Virus record (IMG/VR): IMGVR_UViG_2908572912_000001
Coordinates: 1 to 34,457 of that record
Origin: a virus
Taxonomy: Duplodnaviria > Heunggongvirae > Uroviricota > Caudoviricetes
Reading direction: 5' to 3' (one strand)
Length of the DNA stretch: 34,457 nucleotides
The position numbers and the translations under genes were made by a program. The notes beneath the pieces were generated by a model. That model searched no databases. It was not told the origin of the DNA and saw only the letters and a list, made by a program, of their open reading frames with translations. Of this stretch, positions 10,534 through 23,968 are shown piece after piece (position 1 is the first letter of the stretch; every line of letters begins with the position of its first letter).

Positions 10534-13310
10534 TCAACGAATACTGATGCCGGAAGCAGCCTTTTTGGTCACAATCACCGTACAGTCGGTGATATTGCCT
10601 GCCCCCTGATTGCCTTTCTGGAAAATCTTAAACTCCAGAGTGACGCTTCCCCTGCCACTCGGCATATCAATAACCGCACTGTAACTACCGGGAATGGCCC
10701 CTTTAGTTTCTCTGGATGCGATTAATACGCCGTTTTTGCGAACTTCAAAACCATACCCCGTGTACCTTGTACCTCCCGGGTTATCACCACTTCCCGGATC
10801 GTCATACGCTATACCGTTAAAGATAATGGGCGGAATAATGATTTGACGGTCAAAGTTATGATCATCGCTGATGGTGACTGTAACCGTCCCGTCTGGTGTT
10901 TCCGTGTTACCCCACGTACCAGCCTTTTTCGGGAATGATTTGGATACTGTTTTAACAAAATCACCTCTGACCTGATTCGCCTCCAGCATACCCTTAATCG
11001 TACAGTTTTCATTTATCGTGACGTTGTTGAGCGTCCCGGCGTTCGCATTCACACTGCCACTGATATCCGCATTTTTAGCGGTCAGCTTTCCGTCCGGTGT
11101 CAGGGAAAATACCGGTGGATTTCCACCACTGGTAATGGTGGGGGCCGTCAGGCGTTTGAGGAACACGTCGTTCATGAATATCTGGTTGCCCTGCGCCACA
11201 AACATCGGCGTTTCATTCCCGTTTGCCGGGTCAATAAACGCGATACGATTGGCGGCAACCAGAAACTGGCTCAGTTTGCCTTCCTCTGTATCCTCCATGC
11301 TGAGGCCAAGCCCCGCGACATAATGCTTACCGTCTTCGGTCTGCTCAATTTTGACGCCCCACATGGCATTCCATTTATCGTTGGCGTCCTTCCACTCTTT
11401 CGAAAACTCCTCCAGTCTGCTGGCGTTATCCTCCGTCAGCTCGACTTTTTCCAGCAGCTCCTTGCCGAGATGGGATTCGGTTATCTTGCCTTTGAAAAAA
11501 TCCAGGTAACCTTCCGCATCATCGCTCGCCCGACCAACGGCTTCCACGAATGCCGATTTGCCAACGGTGTTCACACTGCGGATATAAAAGTAATAATCAT
11601 GGCCCGGTTTGATATTGATACTGGCGGCTATCCAGTACAGCGCCGTACCAAGATAGCGGGCTGTGGTTTCAACCTGCCTGATATCGGTAATCCGCTTTTC
11701 CGAGAACCAGAACTCAAACTGTACCGTCGGGTCATAAACGGCAAGATGCGGCGTGGCGGTTATCTGAAAATAGCCCGGCGTCAGCTCAATCCTCGACGGT
11801 GTTGCCGGTGCGGCAATCCGGAACGATACCGACGCCGGATCGCCCTGCTGTCCCCACGCATTTACCGCCCGGACTGTCAGCGTGTACCGCCCCAGCGCCA
11901 GTTGCGTGAAGCGGTATGTGGTTTCCGTCGTCCGGGCCGTGCTGACCAGCCGCTCACTGCCGTCATCCGCTGCCACGGTCAGGCGAAGCATAAAGCTCAC
12001 CCCCTTCACCACCTTCGGCGTGTCCCAGCGCGCCAGCACCTGATATTCCCCGCTGTCTGCGGTGACTTCGGCAGTCAGGTGCTGCACCGCTGGCGGCGTG
12101 ACACCATTCACCGTGCCGCTCTGGTCGCCGTCAAAGTGCGCCCCGTTATCCACGATGGCCTCTTTTTCCGGTACATGCTGCACGGCGGTGATGGCATACG
12201 TGCCGTCATCGTTCTCACGGATACTCACGCAGCGGAACAGACGCTGGCGCAGCGTCGGCAGCTTCAGCCCCCATACGCTGTATCCGGCAACGCCGTCAGG
12301 AACACGGCTCACTTTTACCTTCACGCCGTCGGTGACGGACTGGACCTCCACGCTGACCGGATTGCCACTTCCGTCAACCAGGCTTATCAGCGTGGTACCG
12401 GAGGATGGCAGCGTGATTTCACGGTCAAGCGTCAGCGTCCGGGTCTGGCTGTTCACCGCCAGCACGCGCCCGCCGATGCTGATCCCCGCATAGTCATCAT
12501 CGCAGATTTCAATAACATCACCCGGCACATGGCGAAGCCCTTCGGCACCCACGCTGAAATCCACGGTCTGCGTCTCCAGCAGCTCCGTTTTAATCAGCCA
12601 CAGCCCGGCGCGGTGTGCCTGCCCCCGGCTGGTACAGCCAAAGGCATCCATCTTCGTGACGTTACGACCGTAACGGGCAATGGCCTGCGTGTCCTCCACA
12701 AGCTCTGTCGCCGTCTCCCAGCCGTTATCCGGGTCAATCCAGTTCACCTCAACGGCATTATGGCGGTCCTTCAGGGCGCTGAAGCTGTAGCGGAACGGCG
12801 CGCCATCATCCGGCATCACCACATTACTGCGGTTATAGGTCCACACCTTATCTGATGGTCGGTCCTGCACGAACGTCAGCGTCTGCCCGTTCCATACCGG
12901 CATACAGCGCATCGCCGAGCAGAAATCACTGAGCACATCCCACGCCTTGCGCTGTGTGGTCAGGTACGCATTACAGGTGATGCGCGGCTCCGTGCCGCCA
13001 AAGCCGTCCGGCACTGACTGGTCGCAGTACTGGCCGATGACATACAGCGCCCATTTATCCACATCCGCCGCACCAAGACGTTTCCCCATGCCGTAGCGCG
13101 GATGGGTCAGCATATCCCACAGACACCAGGCCATGTTGTTGCTGTACGCTGGCCTGAACGTTCCGTCCCAGATACCGCTGTATTGCCGCGTCTGCGGGTT
13201 ATAATTCGACGGCACCTGCAGAATACGCCCGCGCAGATGATAATTACGGCTCACCTGCTGGCTGCCGAACTGCTCCGAGTCCACCTGCACGCCGACCAGT
13301 GCCGTGTTCG
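10534..13310 (-). pseudogene. J: Tail tip/host-specificity protein J, C-terminal ~918 codons only (N-terminal ~200 codons deleted)
   Basis: Translation matches lambda J from ...[19 protein letters not shown] to the C-terminal receptor-binding region; no ATG start, upstream sequence is nu1 in another frame. Confidence 0.9.
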
Positions 13311-13819
13311 GGTATCAGTTCATCCAGCGCGGCTGCTTTGTTCATGGCTTTGATGATATCCCGTTTCAGGAAATCAACATGTCGGTTTTCCAGTTCCGGA
13401 AAACGCCGCTGCACCGACAGGGGGATCCCGTCGAGAATACTGGCAATTTCACCTGCGATCCGCGACAGCACGAAAGTACAGAATGCGGTTTCCACCACTT
13501 CAGCTGAGTCTCTGGCATTCTTCAGTTCCTGTGCGTCGGCCTGCGCACGCGTAAGTCGATGGCGTTCGTACTCAATAGTCCCTGGCTGGAGATCTGCCTC
13601 GCTGGCCTGGCGCAGTTCTTCAACCTCCCGGCGCAGCTTTTCGTTCTCAATTTCAGCATCCCTTTCGGCATACCATTTTATAACGGCGGCAGAGTCATAA
13701 AGCACCTCATTACCCTTGCCACCGCCTCGCAGAACGGGCATTCCCTGTTCCTGCCAGTTCTGAATGGTACGGATACTCGCACCGAAAATGTCAGCCAGCT
13801 GCTTTTTGTTGACTTCCAT
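13311..13819 (-). pseudogene. nu1: Terminase small subunit Nu1, 3'-truncated (about 169 of 181 codons), fused out of frame to J
   Basis: MEVNKKQLADIFGASIRTIQNWQEQGMPVLRGGG... matches lambda Nu1 to ...ALDELIP, then reads into J-derived sequence and stops at 13244. Confidence 0.9.
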
Positions 13820-14402: not shown

Positions 14403-14764
14403 ACATCCCGGTTTCTTCCACCATCGCACCGGAAAAGCGACTATGAGGGTAACCCTGCGTCTGTCAGCACAGTAAAACCCGGTGTGCATCGTTTTTGATT
14501 ATTCCCGCACACTCACGCAGAAGGAATTCCCCGTCGGGCTACGGTCATGGTTAATGCGGGAATACGGCGACGATACAGCGCAGCTAAAAGGGTAATAGAC
14601 GGATAGACCGGTTTATTTCATTCCACAGGATTCTGAGTGTCCCCAACTTCCTCCAATAGTCTGAGCGTACACCTATATAGTTTTAATTTTCATCAATCCA
14701 TTTAACTATCGTTTAATTGTTGTCACATAGGATTCTGCCGTTTTTAACAATGCAGGATAATAAG

Positions 14765-15058
14765 ATGAAAAAAATGTTGTTTTCTGCCGCTCTGGCAATG
14801 CTTATTACAGGATGTGCTCAACAGACGTTTACTGTTGGAAACAAACCGACAGCAGTAACACCAAAGGAAACCATCACCCATCACTTCTTCGTTTCGGGAA
14901 TTGGACAGGAGAAAACTGTTGATGCAGCCAAAATTTGTGGCGGCGCAGAAAATGTTGTTAAAACAGAAACCCAGCAAACATTCGTAAATGGATTGCTCGG
15001 TTTTATTACTTTAGGCATTTATACTCCGCTGGAAGCGCGTGTGTATTGCTCACAATAA
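14765..15058 (+). CDS. bor: Bor lipoprotein (serum-resistance moron), 97 aa
   Basis: MKKMLFSAALAMLITGCAQQTFTV... lipobox LITGC, near-identical to lambda Bor/DLP12 BorD; track ORF starts at an upstream alternative codon. Confidence 0.9.
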   Translation: MKKMLFSAALAMLITGCAQQTFTVGNKPTAVTPKETITHHFFVSGIGQEKTVDAAKICGGAENVVKTETQQTFVNGLLGFITLGIYTPLEARVYCSQ

Positions 15059-15551: not shown

Positions 15552-16045
15552 TGCTGACCCCACAAACAGATTTCACGCTCAATCTCACGACGAGTCATGA
15601 GACCTTTCCATTGCTTACCGCCAGCATATGTCCAGCGACGTAACTGATCACATGCGCCTTTGATATCGCCCTGGTTTATTTTGCGAAGAAGCGTCGATGT
15701 TCTGAAATTGCCAGCACCCACGTTGTAAACGAATGAGTAAAGAGCGCCGCGCGTTGTTTCCGGTATATCGACTTCGATGTACGGGTTAATTTGTCTGGCG
15801 ACAGTGGCAAGGTCTTTATTCAAGAGTGCTTTGCATTCTGCTTTGGTATACGTTTTACCGAGCATGATGTCTTTTCCTGTATGCCCGTGACATACAGTCC
15901 ATACACCAACAATATCTTTGTATGGTATGTAGCTGACACCTTCCAGACCATCGTTACCACTTGGGCCAGTGATTAACACTGATGCTATAGCAATTGCTCC
16001 GCCACCAATAGCAGCAGCAACGGCTTTTCGTAATGATGGAGGCAT
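15548..16045 (-). CDS. R: SAR endolysin (lysozyme R, phage 21 / DLP12 RrrD type)
   Basis: 165 aa with N-terminal signal-anchor-release segment [24 protein letters not shown] followed by a T4-lysozyme-like catalytic domain. Confidence 0.9.
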
Positions 16046-16260
16046 TATTCACCTCTCGCAGCCTTGCGCTTATCTTCTTTAATCTTGAAATAAAGGTTTG
16101 TCAGGTACGTCAGCAGGCCAAATACCAGGCTACCCAGCACACCTATTGCTGCCCACTGTGAGGGCGTGACTTTATCGAGCAGCTGTAAAAACCAGTAACC
16201 GGCACTACCTGCTGAGGTGCCATAGGCGACACCCGTTGTTAACTTATCCATGGATTTCAT
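16045..16260 (-). CDS. S: Class II pinholin (S21 / EssD type), 71 aa with dual start MKSM
   Basis: [71 protein letters not shown], two TM segments. Confidence 0.9.
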
Positions 16261-16361
16261 AACCCCACCTCGCAGACAAAGCGGGTGTAAATTGAGGGAA
16301 TACTACGAAACGTAACAGACTCGGAGTCAGTGAATAACTCAGGTATTGGGTTATCAGCTAA

Positions 16362-16405
16362 TATCGAGACTCAAAAAATGGAAAAACCCGCTCGACGGCG
16401 GGTTT
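16362..16405 (-). terminator. Strong rho-independent terminator about 100 nt upstream of S on the late strand (tR'-like)
   Basis: Minus-strand hairpin aaacccgccgtcgagcgggttt followed by tttttccatttttt. Confidence 0.5.
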
Positions 16406-16833
16406 AAGCTGTGTGACGAAGTAACCACTCTTAACAGCATAACCAATTTTTTACGTACGTAAACCACAAAATGATATTTGCGAGAATGCTACCGAGTATT
16501 GAAAACACCACTACAAATACATAAGCAAATCTCAACAAATAACCAGCAAATAATTTCCAGCGTTATTTTTAGCCGATTTAAATTGAACCTTCAAATTACA
16601 GAGCACTTATAAATAACAGCCGTTAATATAAATTGGCTAATAGATTTATTTTTATTCAGCCAAGAGCCATGAATAGGATTCGATAGAAAAAAGTTCAGAT
16701 AAAAATAGAGATCTACTTCACAAATCAAACGAGAAACCAAAACTTACATCTTGAAATAATCACATTGATTAGATGAATATTTATCGCGCAGTGACATCAT
16801 TTTTTAATAATAGTTCAAAAAAAAGGGCTCACG

Positions 16834-17916
16834 ATGAAAAAATTAACAGTGGCAATTTCTGCTGTAGCTGCATCAGTACTGATGGCGATGTCTGCTCAGG
16901 CAGCTGAAATTTATAATAAAGACAGTAACAAGCTGGATCTATATGGGAAAGTTAATGCCAAGCACTACTTCTCCTCTAATGATGCAGATGATGGTGATAC
17001 TACTTATGCCCGTCTTGGCTTCAAAGGTGAAACCCAAATCAACGATCAACTGACTGGTTTCGGTCAGTGGGAATATGAATTCAAAGGCAACCGCGCTGAA
17101 TCTCAAGGCTCCTCCAAAGACAAAACCCGTCTTGCATTTGCAGGCCTGAAATTCGGGGACTACGGCTCAATCGATTACGGCCGTAACTACGGTGTAGCAT
17201 ATGACATCGGTGCGTGGACTGACGTTCTGCCAGAATTCGGTGGCGATACCTGGACCCAAACAGATGTGTTCATGACTGGTCGCACCACTGGTGTTGCAAC
17301 TTATCGTAACAACGACTTCTTTGGTCTGGTTGATGGTCTGAACTTTGCTGCTCAGTATCAGGGTAAAAATGACCGCACTGACGTAACTGAAGCTAATGGT
17401 GATGGTTTCGGTTTCTCCACTACTTATGAGTATGAAGGATTCGGTGTAGGTGCAACCTATGCTAAATCTGACCGCACTAATAATCAGGTTATCTACGGTA
17501 ACAACAGCCTGAATGCATCTGGTCAAAATGCTGAAGTATGGGCAGCTGGTCTGAAATATGATGCGAACAACATCTATCTGGCCACCACCTATTCTGAAAC
17601 CCAGAACATGACTGTTTTTGGTAATAACCATATTGCCAACAAAGCACAAAACTTCGAAGCTGTTGCACAATATCAGTTCGACTTCGGCCTGCGTCCATCC
17701 GTTGCTTACCTGCATTCTAAAGGAAAAGACTTGGGTGTTTGGGGTGATCAGGACCTGGTTGAATATGTTGATGTAGGTGCAACCTATTACTTCAACAAAA
17801 ATATGTCCACTTTTGTTGACTACAAAATCAACCTGATTGATAAGAGCGATTTCACGAAAGCATCTGGCGTTGCTACCGATGATATCGTTGCTGTAGGTAT
17901 GGTTTACCAGTTCTAA
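16834..17916 (+). CDS. nmpC: OmpC/OmpD-family general porin NmpC, apparently intact (signal peptide, C-terminal ...VYQF)
   Basis: 360 aa, signal peptide [23 protein letters not shown], porin beta-barrel signature and terminal Phe; lies between Q and the lysis cassette on the opposite strand, as in DLP12. Confidence 0.9.
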
Positions 17917-18049
17917 TTTGATTACTAAAAGATATGTTGTGGGAGGCTTTGCCTCCCCAACATATAAGTGGCTCCCTCAAGCCACTTCCTTTAGAAGCAC
18001 AACCTTGCTTCTAACTATACAAACCTTCTGTTATATATTACCCTTTATT

Positions 18050-18085
18050 TTTGGGGGCGTTTCAACGCCCCATTTTTAATAACTT
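18050..18085 (+). terminator. Rho-independent terminator downstream of nmpC (ggggcgtttcaacgcccc + atttttaa); a second hairpin at 17938-17962
   Basis: GC stem followed by T-run on the plus strand. Confidence 0.5.
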
Positions 18086-18104
18086 TTAGTAAATAATTGG
18101 CGTA

Positions 18105-18488
18105 TTAATTAGAGTTATTAACAACGATATCCATCTCTAACCGGATATCTAATGCCATTAACATCCCTTCAATTATGCCCTCAGCCTTTTGTAACCTTTT
18201 CCCGATATAACCATCAGAGCAGCAATGCTTACCTGCCAGTGACATGAATGTCATACCGACTACATAATAATCTACTAATAAATCGTGCAAATCGCTGTTG
18301 TTCTTTTTCAGACGGGCCATGCACCCGCAAATGATCATCGCGTCATCGTCACAACATTGCGGGCGAGATTTTACTTTTGAAGGAATTAATCCCTTAAAAC
18401 CGGCGGCAATGGACGACCAGGTCACATCTTCATGATTATTAGCCGCCCACGCTCCCCAACGCTCAAGAACCATCTGAATATCACGCAT
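18105..18488 (-). CDS. Q: Late-gene antiterminator Q (phage 82 / DLP12 QuuD type), Cys-rich zinc-binding
   Basis: [26 protein letters not shown]...[16 protein letters not shown]... as remembered for QuuD; track ORF has a 5-codon upstream extension. Confidence 0.85.
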
Positions 18489-18563
18489 CAACTTACTCCA
18501 CAAAAATCAGACCAGAACGCCAATTACAAGCAAAAATCAATAAAACAGTATTAGTTGATTGTT

Positions 18564-18704
18564 ATCTCTGACTTCATACTCCTGCTCCTGTCAGGGTTTT
18601 GGCGTAATTCTTCAGTATTCGGTAATCGGTCAAAACAGAACCGGGGAAACGATATAAGCGCAGACGCCCCCAGCGGTGGCGAAGAAGTTCTGCCATATAA
18701 AACT
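18564..18704 (-). CDS. ylcG: YlcG-like small protein (46 aa), below the ORF-track size cut-off
   Basis: Hand translation [46 protein letters not shown] in the gap between rusA and Q, where ylcG lies in DLP12. Confidence 0.55.
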
Positions 18705-20459: not shown

Positions 20460-21074
20460 CTAACGTTGTTTAATAACATTCTGACGCAAATGTGGCAATA
20501 CTCGACTCCACTTATCATCCTGCCACGGCTGGAATTTTACATGTGCCGTTTCTCTGGCGAGGATTGCTCGCGCTCTGGTGAGTATCTGGGGATATTCTTG
20601 CTCGATGGAAGTGAAGCGACCAGCTTCACGATGCTCCGCAACCTGAAGAAGAGGAGTAACGTTCTGGCAGGCGGTTAACATCGCATCCCCAGCTCGCCAT
20701 AACCAAGCAAGTGTGCAAAGTTCGTTATCAGTGAATTGTTTTGTGATCGGGGATTGTTGAACTTCTCGATCGAGAATATCCAGAACCCAGCGGCGGAACT
20801 CTTTGGCTACAGGAGTTCGTGCAAACATGGCGATCAAATGGGCTCCGCGAAGGCTAAATACTCGAGACTCCTGCATTCCACGAGGGGTGGTCACTTTGAC
20901 CACCCTTGTCATCATATCTGTAAATTCATCTGAGTGACGGGAGTAAATGCGCTGAACTGCTTTATCGTCCGCATATTCCAGAGCTAAACCAACTTCAGTG
21001 GCAGTAAGCCAAATTCTGTTATTGTGGCAAATTGGGGTAAACGTCGTTTTGTGGAATGCTAATTGAGTAGTCAT
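20460..21074 (-). CDS. Bro-N domain DNA-binding protein (Roi/antirepressor-like)
   Basis: N-terminal ...ICHNNRIWLTATEVGLALEYADDKAVQRIYSRHSDEF... fits the Bro-N fold pattern; sits in the nin region like HK022 roi. Confidence 0.65.
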   Translation of the reverse strand: MTTQLAFHKTTFTPICHNNRIWLTATEVGLALEYADDKAVQRIYSRHSDEFTDMMTRVVKVTTPRGMQESRVFSLRGAHLIAMFARTPVAKEFRRWVLDILDREVQQSPITKQFTDNELCTLAWLWRAGDAMLTACQNVTPLLQVAEHREAGRFTSIEQEYPQILTRARAILARETAHVKFQPWQDDKWSRVLPHLRQNVIKQR

Positions 21075-21685: not shown

Positions 21686-23581
21686 TTAATTATTTTTCTT
21701 TAACTTGAAATTTCTTCCCATTGCTAGTGTTCTTCGAAGATTCGAATCATAAGCTGGTTGATAATATCTATCATAAAAATCCTTAATTGTCTGATGGTAA
21801 GTATCCAGCATCAAACCATAAAACCCCATGACCTTAAGATAATCCACCAAGGGAAATAAATAATCATCAGTCTGAACATCAGTATCAATATTATTTTTTT
21901 GTTTTTTAACTTCAAATTTGTATAAGTTTAACTCACCCTTATCCATCGTGCATGAAAAAAGGTCGTCAAAAATCAAATCAATTTTTGTCATAGGAACTCG
22001 TTCTTTTCCAGACATTATAGGTAGAATATCAATACCTAAGAGCGAACCTAATACAAAGTCGTAATGAAGCGAAATCACTGAGTCATTCGATGTCGAGTTG
22101 CCTTTGATAAATACTCTACTTAGTGCCGAGTCAAAAACATTCTCAACTCTCTCTCTCGTCATGTTTGCGACATCTACAACCCCCATATCACGAGAAGCTT
22201 TTATTGTGATTTCATCTATAAATGCTTTGGAATCTAGTGAATGTAAAAACAACATGAAGTTATCTAACTGTTCAGAGCATTTAATAGCCACCATAAGATT
22301 TTCGTATATATCTTTTTTATACTCAATCGGTAAATTTGCTACCGCAAAAGCAGCATAAAATTCTTGCACTGATTTATGCAGAAAAACATACCTATTATTT
22401 CCCTCAGGTTGGATAAGGCAAGTTATCTCAATAAGATCATCTATAAAGTTTGATGCATCTTCTTTAAGATAACCTTCTGTTTCAATAGCATCTTCAGCAT
22501 ATCTAAGCAACTCCTCTCCCCAAAACTCAAATTTCTCCTCAATCAGTGCGTTATAGCAAATAGCTGAAAAACACAATTTAGCTTTTTCACCAATAATGTT
22601 TGATTTTTTCTCGCGCGTATATACTTTTATTTTATCATGCCTTGCATATAAGGTGTCAAAGAGGCTTCGATAAAACTCTATTATATTATTTGGAATATCA
22701 TTCATATAAGGATAACAATAATACAAAAGAGTAACTAAAATTGGATTGCAAATAGTTCCCTCAAGTTCTTCTTTATCACATAGTAAATCCGCCAAGACTT
22801 TAAACGAGGCATCACTACTTGAGAATCTGTCATTTTTCGATAAAGAATGAAGAATACAAATCTTATCAGAAATATTTAGCTTATCTATAAAAATATTATA
22901 CACATCAGTAGTATAACATATATCTGTATTTGGTCTCGTTGTTGCGATAATTGGTGTGTTAAAATGATAATGAATGTTTTTTATTTCATTCATCATCATA
23001 GTTCGCTCTTCATGTTTAACCTCATCAAATCCATCCAACATTAAAACGACTCTTTGGGATTGCAGTAATATTTTCAAGCTATCCTCTGAACACCCCACAC
23101 CAAATGAATTAAGAATGTCTGCCAGATAAGCAATAATATTTGCATTCTTCACCCTTCTTAATTCAATAAAAAAAGGCATCCGTTCTGATTTTTTTATTTC
23201 CTCGCTAAACAACTTGCGTAAAATAGTACTTTTCCCTTGCCCCGCTATACCGACTATATTTACAATACCATGAAATGGTAAAGTGACCCCATCTTTTATA
23301 ACGACCTTGTCTTTATTAGATGCCACCTCAACAGTTAACGGATAATAAATATCATCTAAAAAAATATCATAATCAGCGTTGTGCAAAGTTCTCATTTTCA
23401 GAGATGGTAGCACATGCTTTCTTAAATAATTTTCTCTTCCGAGGGGATCATTTAATTGTTCGAGTATAACCTTGCCTTCATCTAGGTCCCTAGCCCAAGG
23501 TTTAGAGAGCAATACTTCTGTTATTTTTTCCGCAGCTTTTCCTACTGTGCTATTAATAATAGTCGCAAGAAACTCATCCAT
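21686..23581 (-). CDS. NACHT-family STAND NTPase (bacterial NLR-like), candidate antiphage protein; ~110-aa N-terminal region, central NACHT, ~350-aa C-terminal region
   Basis: Walker A GIAGQGKST, NACHT-type Walker B VVLMLDGFDEV, sensor-1-like IIATTRP; GC ~30 percent island. Start placed at ATG (MDEFL...) preceded by GGTGA; track alt-start gives 23638. Confidence 0.8.
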   Translation of the reverse strand: MDEFLATIINSTVGKAAEKITEVLLSKPWARDLDEGKVILEQLNDPLGRENYLRKHVLPSLKMRTLHNADYDIFLDDIYYPLTVEVASNKDKVVIKDGVTLPFHGIVNIVGIAGQGKSTILRKLFSEEIKKSERMPFFIELRRVKNANIIAYLADILNSFGVGCSEDSLKILLQSQRVVLMLDGFDEVKHEERTMMMNEIKNIHYHFNTPIIATTRPNTDICYTTDVYNIFIDKLNISDKICILHSLSKNDRFSSSDASFKVLADLLCDKEELEGTICNPILVTLLYYCYPYMNDIPNNIIEFYRSLFDTLYARHDKIKVYTREKKSNIIGEKAKLCFSAICYNALIEEKFEFWGEELLRYAEDAIETEGYLKEDASNFIDDLIEITCLIQPEGNNRYVFLHKSVQEFYAAFAVANLPIEYKKDIYENLMVAIKCSEQLDNFMLFLHSLDSKAFIDEITIKASRDMGVVDVANMTRERVENVFDSALSRVFIKGNSTSNDSVISLHYDFVLGSLLGIDILPIMSGKERVPMTKIDLIFDDLFSCTMDKGELNLYKFEVKKQKNNIDTDVQTDDYLFPLVDYLKVMGFYGLMLDTYHQTIKDFYDRYYQPAYDSNLRRTLAMGRNFKLKKNN

Positions 23582-23968
23582 TTTTTCACCACATTCATTA
23601 ACCAATACGTGGTGCATTCTTACAAGACTCAGTAACAATTGTCAATCATAGGTTTTCGCATGATTGCAAAACGCCATAAACAATTGTAGCACCATAATTT
23701 TAAACACTATAAATATACAACCTTCCTACAAGCATTCAGTACATCGCTTAATCACAGGGCTTGAATATATAGTAAGGAATCGATATTAATCACCTCATCT
23801 ACTTTAAACATCTTACACACCTATAATTTATAATAGTCAACACGAGGTCATCATATTAAACATGCAATTACAAACATTCATTTTTATATAAATTTTCATG
23901 ATTTAACCGTAGAGCGACGGTAATAAATTTCATATACAAGGATTTAAGCTCCCATACGTTTTCTATTA

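Follow-up and report, generated by a model that had tools for sequence, protein, structure and literature searches.

The window, by which we mean the whole 34,457-nt stretch of viral DNA analyzed (IMG/VR record IMGVR_UViG_2908572912_000001), contains a prophage without head and tail genes. Its late-gene antiterminator Q is encoded on the minus strand (18488-18105) by an ORF with an ATG start preceded by GGAG. The 127-aa product belongs to the 933W/H-19B/DLP12 QuuD type of the Q21 superfamily: It matches the Pfam family PF06530 (Phage_antitermQ, E=8.5e-54), is 79% identical to the Q protein of 933W and shows a distant match to the Q21 structures 6P18/6JNX (E=8e-8). At the nucleotide level, the gene is 75-80% identical to the Q genes of Stx phages across nt 1-333, where this similarity stops. 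The first late gene, S (16260-16045, minus strand), encodes an S21-type pinholin (PF04971, P21 holin, E=2e-35) with a dual-start MKSM in its sequence, and is followed downstream by a SAR endolysin (R) and Rz. Between Q and S, and antisense to Q as well as to S, R, and Rz, lies a plus-strand ORF for an NmpC/Lc/OmpD-type porin (16834-17916; 360 aa; PF00267, E=1e-152), whose homologs in related phages are annotated as OmpD, NmpC, or OmpC. The positions of Q and of the antisense porin between Q and the lysis genes, both proposed in a first-pass annotation of the same DNA, are thus borne out by the ORFs and their Pfam matches. The sequence evidence thus shows a late control region that is indeed split by the antisense porin: In this defective lambda-like prophage, an NmpC/Lc-type porin gene separates Q from its most likely target cassette.

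The porin unit is closed by an intrinsic plus-strand terminator in the convergent spacer between the 3' ends of Q and the porin gene (18054-18077; GGGGCGTTTCAACGCCCC and then ATTTTT). Read on the minus strand, the same hairpin is followed by CAAAAATAAAGGG, that is, without a T-run. Visual inspection suggests a further terminator, possible but weak, on the minus strand at ~17937-17965, with four T after the stem. K-12 RefSeq lists no RNA gene in the nmpC-quuD spacer, where IpeX might have been expected. At the other end of the porin gene, PnmpC is expected within 16635-16833 (plus strand), because in K-12 its activity is lost upon deletion of -199 to -1 relative to the nmpC ATG (PMC11677980).

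The remaining interval between the porin gene and S holds a compact series of minus-strand elements. A homolog of the late promoter pR' (16463-16436) consists of the -35 hexamer TTTACG (16463-16458), a 16-nt spacer, and the -10 hexamer TATGCT (16441-16436). Overlapping the -35 is a perfect 14-bp dyad, TTTACGTACGTAAA (16463-16450), which is a candidate Q-binding element (QBE). It is followed by a conserved leader, TAAGAGTGGTTACTTCGTCAC (16433-16413), that comprises the predicted start and the presumed pause and Q-loading region, by the intrinsic terminator tR' (16405-16373, +25 to +57; hairpin 16405-16384, T-tract 16383-16373), and by the leader of S with the RBS GAGGTGG (16372-16261). The scanner matches tR' with the stem AAACCCGCCGTCGAGCGGGTTT (8 pairs, 5 of them G-C) and the subsequent TTCCATTTTTT down to 16373, and the hairpin folds with ~ -12 kcal/mol. 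The first-pass annotation had anticipated this promoter and a minus-strand terminator ~100 nt upstream of S: Its hexamers TTTACG and TATGCT are correct, its range of 16440-16475 is slightly off, and the T-tract does end 113 nt before the S ATG. Its wider claim of a Q-responsive promoter and terminator next to S, with the porin between them and Q, gains support from the homology to the 933W and VT1-Sakai cassettes described below.

Taken individually, these elements carry different weight. The pR' hexamers agree with the consensus in 8 of 12 positions, fall under the scanner cut-off and remain uncalled; taken alone they are a chance-level match, and it is solely homology and conservation that give them significance. 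The region has no excess of terminator-like sites over shuffled sequences (4 versus 2.4 +/- 1.6), so that the terminator pattern alone does not exceed chance, and palindromes as long as or longer than the dyad TTTACGTACGTAAA arose in 67 of 20000 shuffles. Compared with Rfam at E<=1, positions 15900-18700 gave a single hit, Trp_leader over the terminator, which at 20.8 bits stays below the gathering score (41) and was dismissed as a generic terminator match. The fold of the leader is unremarkable (z-score -1.1). For 12 diverse leaders, RNAalifold returned only a 5-pair GUGGU/GCCAC stem without covariation; in this run the terminators were misaligned by indels and the stem was partly forced by the search pattern, and the variants were then folded singly. 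A relic of the Q 3' end upstream of the dyad was ruled out, the frame being full of stop codons.

Homology, in contrast to the hexamers alone, supports the assignment of these elements. Window positions 16464-16382 are 77-78% identical to 933W and VT1-Sakai over 83 nt, a stretch that covers the annotated pR', the putative 'qut', and the first terminator; the same 83 nt match sequence annotated with promoter, terminator, and Q in 933W, VT1-Sakai, and phi24B, and the window pR' aligns with that of 933W (L002 902-929). For the Sakai phages, dRNA-seq places the start of pR' at a distance of 258 nt from the transcript 3' end at tR' (PMC7547250). Transferred via the position of the tR' U-tract in the 933W sequence, this distance puts +1 at A16429 or G16428, 6-7 nt past the -10. 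In the initial transcribed region of the window no clear sigma-dependent pause element was found: The best hexamer is TACTTC (+7 to +12), which lacks the conserved final T, where 933W has TACATT. The window, 933W, VT1-Sakai, and SfII share an identical 13-nt core of the leader. At least 120 viral contigs have it too, having been found with a pattern that includes this core; likewise, the conservation of GAGTGGTTAC refers to four independently aligned sequences, the other loci having been retrieved by a pattern containing the leader. In the whole window, the conserved leader is present as a single copy. Among porin-type loci (35 distinct sequences from 42 loci), the fewest variable intergenic columns fall at 16473-16394, within which 16433-16413 is fixed by the search pattern.

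A survey of related loci extends this comparison to the partner protein. The 108 loci with an upstream Q form 18 Q clusters, and every cluster has a single type of dyad at -34 to -21, for instance GCGTACGC, a further dyad type with its own cognate Q, and this pairing holds for gaps between Q and cassette from 5 nt to 2885 nt, whatever the cargo. The half-sites are related among related Q clades, the dyad center occupies an identical position in 7 of 9 promoter types, and all promoter types have a TAnnnT or CAnnnT hexamer at the -10 position, with A as its second and T as its sixth base. The pairing of Q clade and dyad is consistent with a function as QBE, to which co-inheritance rather than selection could contribute. 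Where a porin gene is present, it lies upstream of the late cassette and antisense in 42 of 42 loci and downstream in none.

We therefore consider it very probable, on homology and conservation, that 16463-16373 on the minus strand constitutes the late cassette pR'-QBE-leader-tR' belonging to Q at 18488-18105, displaced from it by a porin moron of ~2 kb that comprises the antisense porin and its flanks. This assignment depends on homology since the experiments concern relatives only, and we infer for the present locus the start position, the binding of Q to the dyad, the pause site, and the efficiency of the terminator. The textbook adjacency of Q and pR' is not found here, as 1671 nt separate the Q stop codon from the leader motif; it is also missing in most loci of the 933W/DLP12-type Q family, and it is dispensable for the mechanism because Q acts in trans.

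The mechanism is likely the standard one of the Q21 family, in which Q loads at a compact promoter and the polymerase reads through a terminator ~50 nt on. Sigma70 RNA polymerase would initiate constitutively near A16429 and, without Q, would stop at the hairpin and T-tract (+25 to +57), yielding an RNA of ~50-57 nt and leaving the lysis genes silent. Q produced from the early rightward operon would bind the dyad at -34 to -21 and load on polymerase that pauses within the conserved initial transcribed region, and the Q-modified polymerase would then pass tR' and transcribe S, R, Rz, and the late genes that follow. Cargo upstream of pR' stays outside the late transcription unit. The porin gene would be read from its own promoter, which diverges from pR', and being outside the late unit it should consequently be expressible in the lysogen without collision with late transcription. 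Although the first-pass annotation had placed pR' beside the promoter of nmpC and suspected interference between late transcription and porin expression, the layout does not support this: The PnmpC region is at least 170 bp away from the pR' -35 and pR' points away from nmpC. Interference is unlikely because the two promoters diverge, and a porin moron seemingly inside the late control region would escape antisense transcription in lytic growth by its position upstream rather than downstream of pR'.

Other placements of the Q-responsive promoter have to be weighed against this assignment. The sigmaE consensus has a GGAACTT-N16-TCAAA-like form, and the window contains a good match, TGAACTA-N16-TCACT (16817-16790, minus strand), with a start near 16785. 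This, the putative site of the published DLP12 'essDp' (16817-16785), overlaps the nmpC 5' region, its +1 maps ~355 nt upstream of the pR' homolog, and the sigmaE-like region is identical to K-12 bar one T fewer in a T-run. We place its +1 at ~16785 because the primer Pdlp12Fw (PMC7918800 supplement) maps to 16906-16887 and PMC7918800 states the DLP12 reporter amplicon as -121 to +650; the placement relies on these two data, and Pdlp12Rv as printed has no ungapped match and was placed by eye at ~16136-16157. A full-text literature search for 'essDp' returned unrelated papers only. That this promoter is the Q-responsive one, and 16463-16436 not the Q-loading promoter, appears improbable to us. 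Such a reading would accommodate both the control of the DLP12 lysis operon by a Q-type antiterminator and RpoE, which PMC7918800 attributes to work it cites, and the conserved motif at the primer-mapped start; the reporter fragment (16906 to ~16136), however, also includes the 933W-type cassette, so that its Q dependence cannot tell essDp from pR'. Moreover, the essDp motif is part of the porin cargo, and phages of the same Q family with other or no cargo lack it, yet keep dyad, -10, leader, and terminator. Known Q proteins, finally, load at a QBE near a sigma70 promoter with a promoter-proximal pause (bioRxiv 10.1101/651190; phage 21 annotation). We see hardly any chance for a pR' directly after Q (~18050-18100), from which transcription would read through the porin in antisense and for which 16405-16373 would be one of several overridden terminators. 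Lambda, phage 21, 933W, and many relatives do have pR' abutting Q (gaps of 5-40 nt), but the 188-nt spacer after Q (17917-18104) contains nothing similar to the conserved leader and no scanner-called promoter, its sole canonical hairpin with a T-run is the plus-strand terminator, the similarity to Stx-phage Q ends already at nt 333 of the gene, and the cassette is on the S side in every porin-carrying locus.

It is also conceivable, if unlikely, that the promoter is right while the hairpin at 16405-16373 is inefficient and serves as a pause, stability, or processing element, with Q control being weak or vestigial. The term 'strong' that the first-pass annotation gave this terminator is unproven: The 258-nt Stx pR' RNA of Sakai runs past the homologous first hairpin (PMC7547250), which must be at least partly read through because the transcript reaches the second terminator at 258 nt. 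In the window, the G-C stem has only 5 pairs (~ -8.5 kcal/mol), a stem-weakening GAGCTGG variant occurs in 16 porin-type loci, and the prophage is defective, its head and tail genes having been lost. Against inefficiency stands the finding that a G+C-rich hairpin with a T-run is kept in place in nearly all leader variants, several of them with unrelated stems. The terminator of phage 21, moreover, is equally promoter-proximal, the scanner calls no other terminator between 16373 and S, and RNAs of ~50 nt may be captured poorly by standard RNA-seq and Term-seq libraries.

With 16463-16373 read as the displaced late cassette of Q, three more general propositions arise. The whole 933W/DLP12-type Q family may have a general hotspot of insertion where the Q stop codon meets pR', and the cargo that this junction seems to take up, antisense and expressed in the lysogen, includes porins, lipoproteins, Kiwa, a KAP-NTPase (PDC-S20), and HNH-type defense genes. 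If so, the split layout would be the rule and not the exception. As its QBE, this Q family may use a clade-specific dyad that overlaps the -35, where Q21 has a direct repeat, and in K-12 DLP12 Q may load at the 933W-type pR' and not at the published essDp of the sigmaE type ~355 nt upstream. That all three hold together we regard as possible, just short of an even prospect. Our literature search found no specific description of a defense hotspot at Q/pR' in lambdoid phages. Antisense cargo at this junction, together with the Q-clade dyads, may help to find prophage-borne defense genes, and the clade-specific dyads may help to predict which Q suits which promoter; the current understanding of the Q antitermination mechanism is unchanged by these considerations.

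Among known systems, the DLP12/qsr' module of K-12 (quuD-nmpC-essD-rrrD-rzpD), which is also found in phage 434B, has the same gene order as the window, with a porin of the same family antisense between Q and S. Over the 265 bp that precede essD in K-12, the window is 99% identical, and promoter, leader, and terminator are 100% identical; in line with the assignment to Q, work cited in PMC7918800 describes the DLP12 lysis operon as Q-controlled. The porin gene is intact in the window, whereas K-12 nmpC is interrupted by IS5, and the deletion also differs from that of DLP12, as Nu1 here abuts the 3' part of J. The layout of Q, porin, and cassette is thus an ordinary one and widespread in E. coli: Of 5426 complete genomes of this species, 3750 have a match to the module, and in 2463 the match spans at least 80% of the module length. 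The analysis predicts the start of lysis transcription for one of the commonest E. coli prophage modules, which bears on the reading of DLP12 lysis-gene phenotypes (biofilm, vesicles) and on prophage annotation.

With the Stx phages, the window shares the cassette itself. The annotated pR' of 933W and VT1-Sakai has the same -35, TTTACG, and a -10, TATCAT, of the same TATNNT form; the 14-bp dyad differs in its two central bases only, the 13-nt leader core TAAGAGTGGTTAC is the same, and the CCCGCC...GCGGG hairpin with its T-tract is homologous. The surroundings differ: In the Stx phages the stop codon of Q falls within the cassette, with 17 nt from stop to leader motif instead of the 1671 nt including the antisense porin, and the Q protein of 933W has a C-terminal tail that is ~17 aa longer and reaches into the promoter. 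A second terminator at +258, tRNA genes, and stx precede S in the Stx phages, whereas here S follows 113 nt after a single terminator.

Phage 21, a Q-loading system with known structures whose Q belongs to the same Pfam family PF06530 as that of the window, has an equally compact cassette according to its curated annotation, in which the QBE occupies the interval from -35 to -10 and the terminator falls within +3 to +50. Its pause element TAAGCTG (+2 to +8) has no clear counterpart in the window, and its QBE is a direct repeat (ATTGAGCA/AATGAGCA), whereas the candidate in the window is an inverted repeat overlapping the -35. Common to both are a QBE upstream of the start, promoter-close loading, a terminator within ~50 nt, and lysis genes of the S21 and SAR-endolysin type; in phage 21, however, Q adjoins pR', from which it is separated here.

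A lambdoid nin/late segment on the minus strand of the window comprises, in order, NinB-like, YbcO, RusA, Q, S, SAR endolysin and Rz. Within it, Q (18488..18105) and the S21-type pinholin gene S (16260..16045), the first lysis gene, flank a plus-strand gene for a 360-aa porin (16834-17916; PF00267, E=1e-152); ORFs and domain searches bear out the coordinates of Q and porin in the first-pass annotation. The hexamers and hairpin proposed there beside S are present: TTTACG (16463-16458) and TATGCT (16441-16436) are separated by a 16-nt spacer, and a terminator scan finds a minus-strand hairpin with T-tract at 16405..16373 (fold ~-12 kcal/mol). By pattern alone, however, neither rises above chance: the hexamers match the consensus at 8 of 12 positions and were not called by the promoter scanner, and terminator-like sites are not enriched in the region scanned.

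The main proposal, a Q-responsive promoter and terminator beside S that the porin splits from Q, is supported by homology. A sensitive search with the 573-nt porin-S spacer matched it in full length solely in phages that share this porin module; an 83-nt piece (16464..16382) matched ~300 Stx and other lambdoid phages. This match falls on the stretch annotated as promoter, terminator and Q in 933W, VT1-Sakai and phi24B, and in the 933W and VT1-Sakai records it spans the annotated pR' (-35 TTTACG, -10 TATCAT), a putative qut and the first rho-independent terminator. By dRNA-seq, the pR' start in two Sakai Stx phages was placed 258 nt from the transcript 3' end at tR' (Sy et al., PMC7547250), which together with the 933W sequence puts +1 at the A/G matching 16429/16428, 6-7 nt past the -10. 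At 258 nt, these transcripts extend past the homologous first hairpin, which must therefore be at least partly read through in Stx phages; a stem-weakening variant occurs in 16 porin-type loci. The leader core TAAGAGTGGTTAC is present in a single copy in the window, with no leader-like sequence downstream of Q. The window Q gene is 75-80% identical to Stx-phage Q genes over nt 1-333, and the proteins are 79% identical. Whereas the window Q is separated from pR' by the porin, the Q stop codon in 933W and VT1-Sakai sits inside the -35/spacer region of pR'. The C-terminal tail of 933W Q (L002 914) is ~17 aa longer, with 22 residues after the shared LEMDR versus 7 after LEMD in the window Q, and reads into the pR' dyad, its TAA stop forming part of the palindrome; Qs parted from pR' by cargo (e.g. 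1905 of the related locus L006) end soon past the shared ...LEMD motif. The longer tail may be a by-product of adjacency to pR'.

The split cassette (pR' homolog, dyad, conserved leader and tR'; 16463-16373) is known biology and an ordinary, very common prophage module: it shares 100% identity with the essD-upstream cassette of K-12 prophage DLP12, and the module recurs in phage 434B, a qsr'-type recombinant. Of 5426 complete E. coli genomes, 3750 match the module, 2463 of these across 80% or more of the query. That Q controls the DLP12 lysis genes is published (cited in PMC7918800). The forward primer given in that paper maps to 16906..16887 and, with the stated -121/+650 numbering, implies a +1 at ~16785 for essDp, the published sigmaE-type promoter. 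This position lies beside a minus-strand sigmaE-like TGAACTA-N16-TCACT motif (16785-16817); the porin ATG is 49 nt away, and the 933W-type pR' follows ~355 nt downstream. A promoter at 16785-16817 would sit back-to-back with the porin 5' region or overlap it. The reporter fragment of that paper also takes in the pR' homolog, and the sigmaE-like motif is missing from porin-free relatives, which retain the cassette; the 933W-type element, rather than essDp, is therefore favoured by sequence comparison as the Q-loading promoter.

Scanning viral contigs for the leader gave at least 120 loci; with phage records, 108 loci have an upstream PF06530 Q. Q adjoins the cassette (gap 5-40 nt) in some alleles only, among them the 933W and 1720a-02 types; most of the rest have 600-2900 nt in between. 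The split layout is general for the 933W/DLP12-type Q family. A TAnnnT or CAnnnT hexamer occupies a fixed position upstream of the leader, as read from the sequences, and the -35 region carries one of ~9 dyad elements (e.g. TTTACGTACGTAAA, TTTACGATCGTAAA, GCGTACGC, GCGGTCCGC, TGTTATAACA, TGGAATTCCA, ATTCGTTACGAAT); in 7 of the 9 types the centre falls at one shared position. Each of 18 Q clusters has one dyad type, independent of gap or cargo, and related Q clades have related half-sites. This is how a candidate Q-binding element would look, and co-inheritance could contribute. A G+C-rich hairpin with T-run is kept 46-61 nt past the leader-motif start, even in variants with a substituted stem sequence. 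The invariant leader start GAGTGGTTAC...(G/C)(C/T)CAC (16406-16429 and homologs) can form a 4-5 bp GUGG/CCAC stem; the window-type leader start holds no clear -10-like pause hexamer, and no convincing sigma-dependent one was found in that leader.

The cargo between Q stop and cassette is almost always antisense: a porin in 36 loci and between one and three other genes in the rest. Each of the 42 porin homologs is antisense and upstream of the cassette, with none downstream. In L018/L096, L027/L067/L106/L112, L055, L014/L116, L006/L068 and L008 (SfII), the cargo includes KwaB with a membrane partner (Kiwa; PADLOC E=2e-150), a KAP NTPase (PDC-S20, E=3e-176), an HNH PDC-M68A-like protein, NA37-like pairs and lipoproteins. 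The junction looks like a moron/defence hotspot of related phages, and our literature search found no paper describing one. Hotspot, dyad/Q pairing and essDp discrepancy are modest side leads.

Elsewhere in the window, a minus-strand 650-aa NACHT-domain P-loop NTPase (21686-23638; PF05729, E=3e-11) upstream of the nin region has no PADLOC match; it is possibly a STAND-type defence gene that has yet to be characterised. A Bor/Iss-type lipoprotein moron downstream of Rz (14717-15058, plus; PF06291) and a Bro-N/P22_AR_C antirepressor-like gene identified by domain search (20460-21074, minus) are ordinary lambdoid accessory genes. The minus-strand Nu1 terminase small-subunit gene (13244-13819; PF07471, E=1e-100) runs straight into a minus-strand ORF (10534-13290) resembling by eye the C-terminal part of lambda tail J. 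This implies that the prophage has lost the large terminase gene, the head genes and most of those for the tail, and is defective. The porin 3' flank (17917-18078, plus) forms four consecutive hairpins, the last part being the terminator that closes the porin unit (18054-18077; scanner stem 18054-18071). Presumably this is where the DLP12 small RNA IpeX has been described; K-12 RefSeq has no RNA gene there, and an Rfam search of the region gave no match.

The suggestion that porin and late transcription interfere finds no support in the layout: the porin promoter, located no more than 199 bp from the porin ATG (PMC11677980), diverges from pR' at a distance of at least 170 bp, and the sole convergent transcription is that of the early operon, through Q, towards the porin 3' end. 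By this layout the porin moron stays outside the late transcript. By analogy, Q control here is most likely the standard Q-type antitermination mechanism: Transcription would start constitutively at ~16429 and terminate at +50-57 without Q, while Q would bind the promoter dyad, load onto the paused polymerase and allow read-through into S, R and Rz. Since Q acts in trans, distance from its site would cost nothing. An equally compact cassette is found in the curated record of phage 21, whose Q belongs to the same superfamily, with the QBE between -35 and -10, the start at 1374, a pause element at +2..+8 and the terminator within +3..+50.
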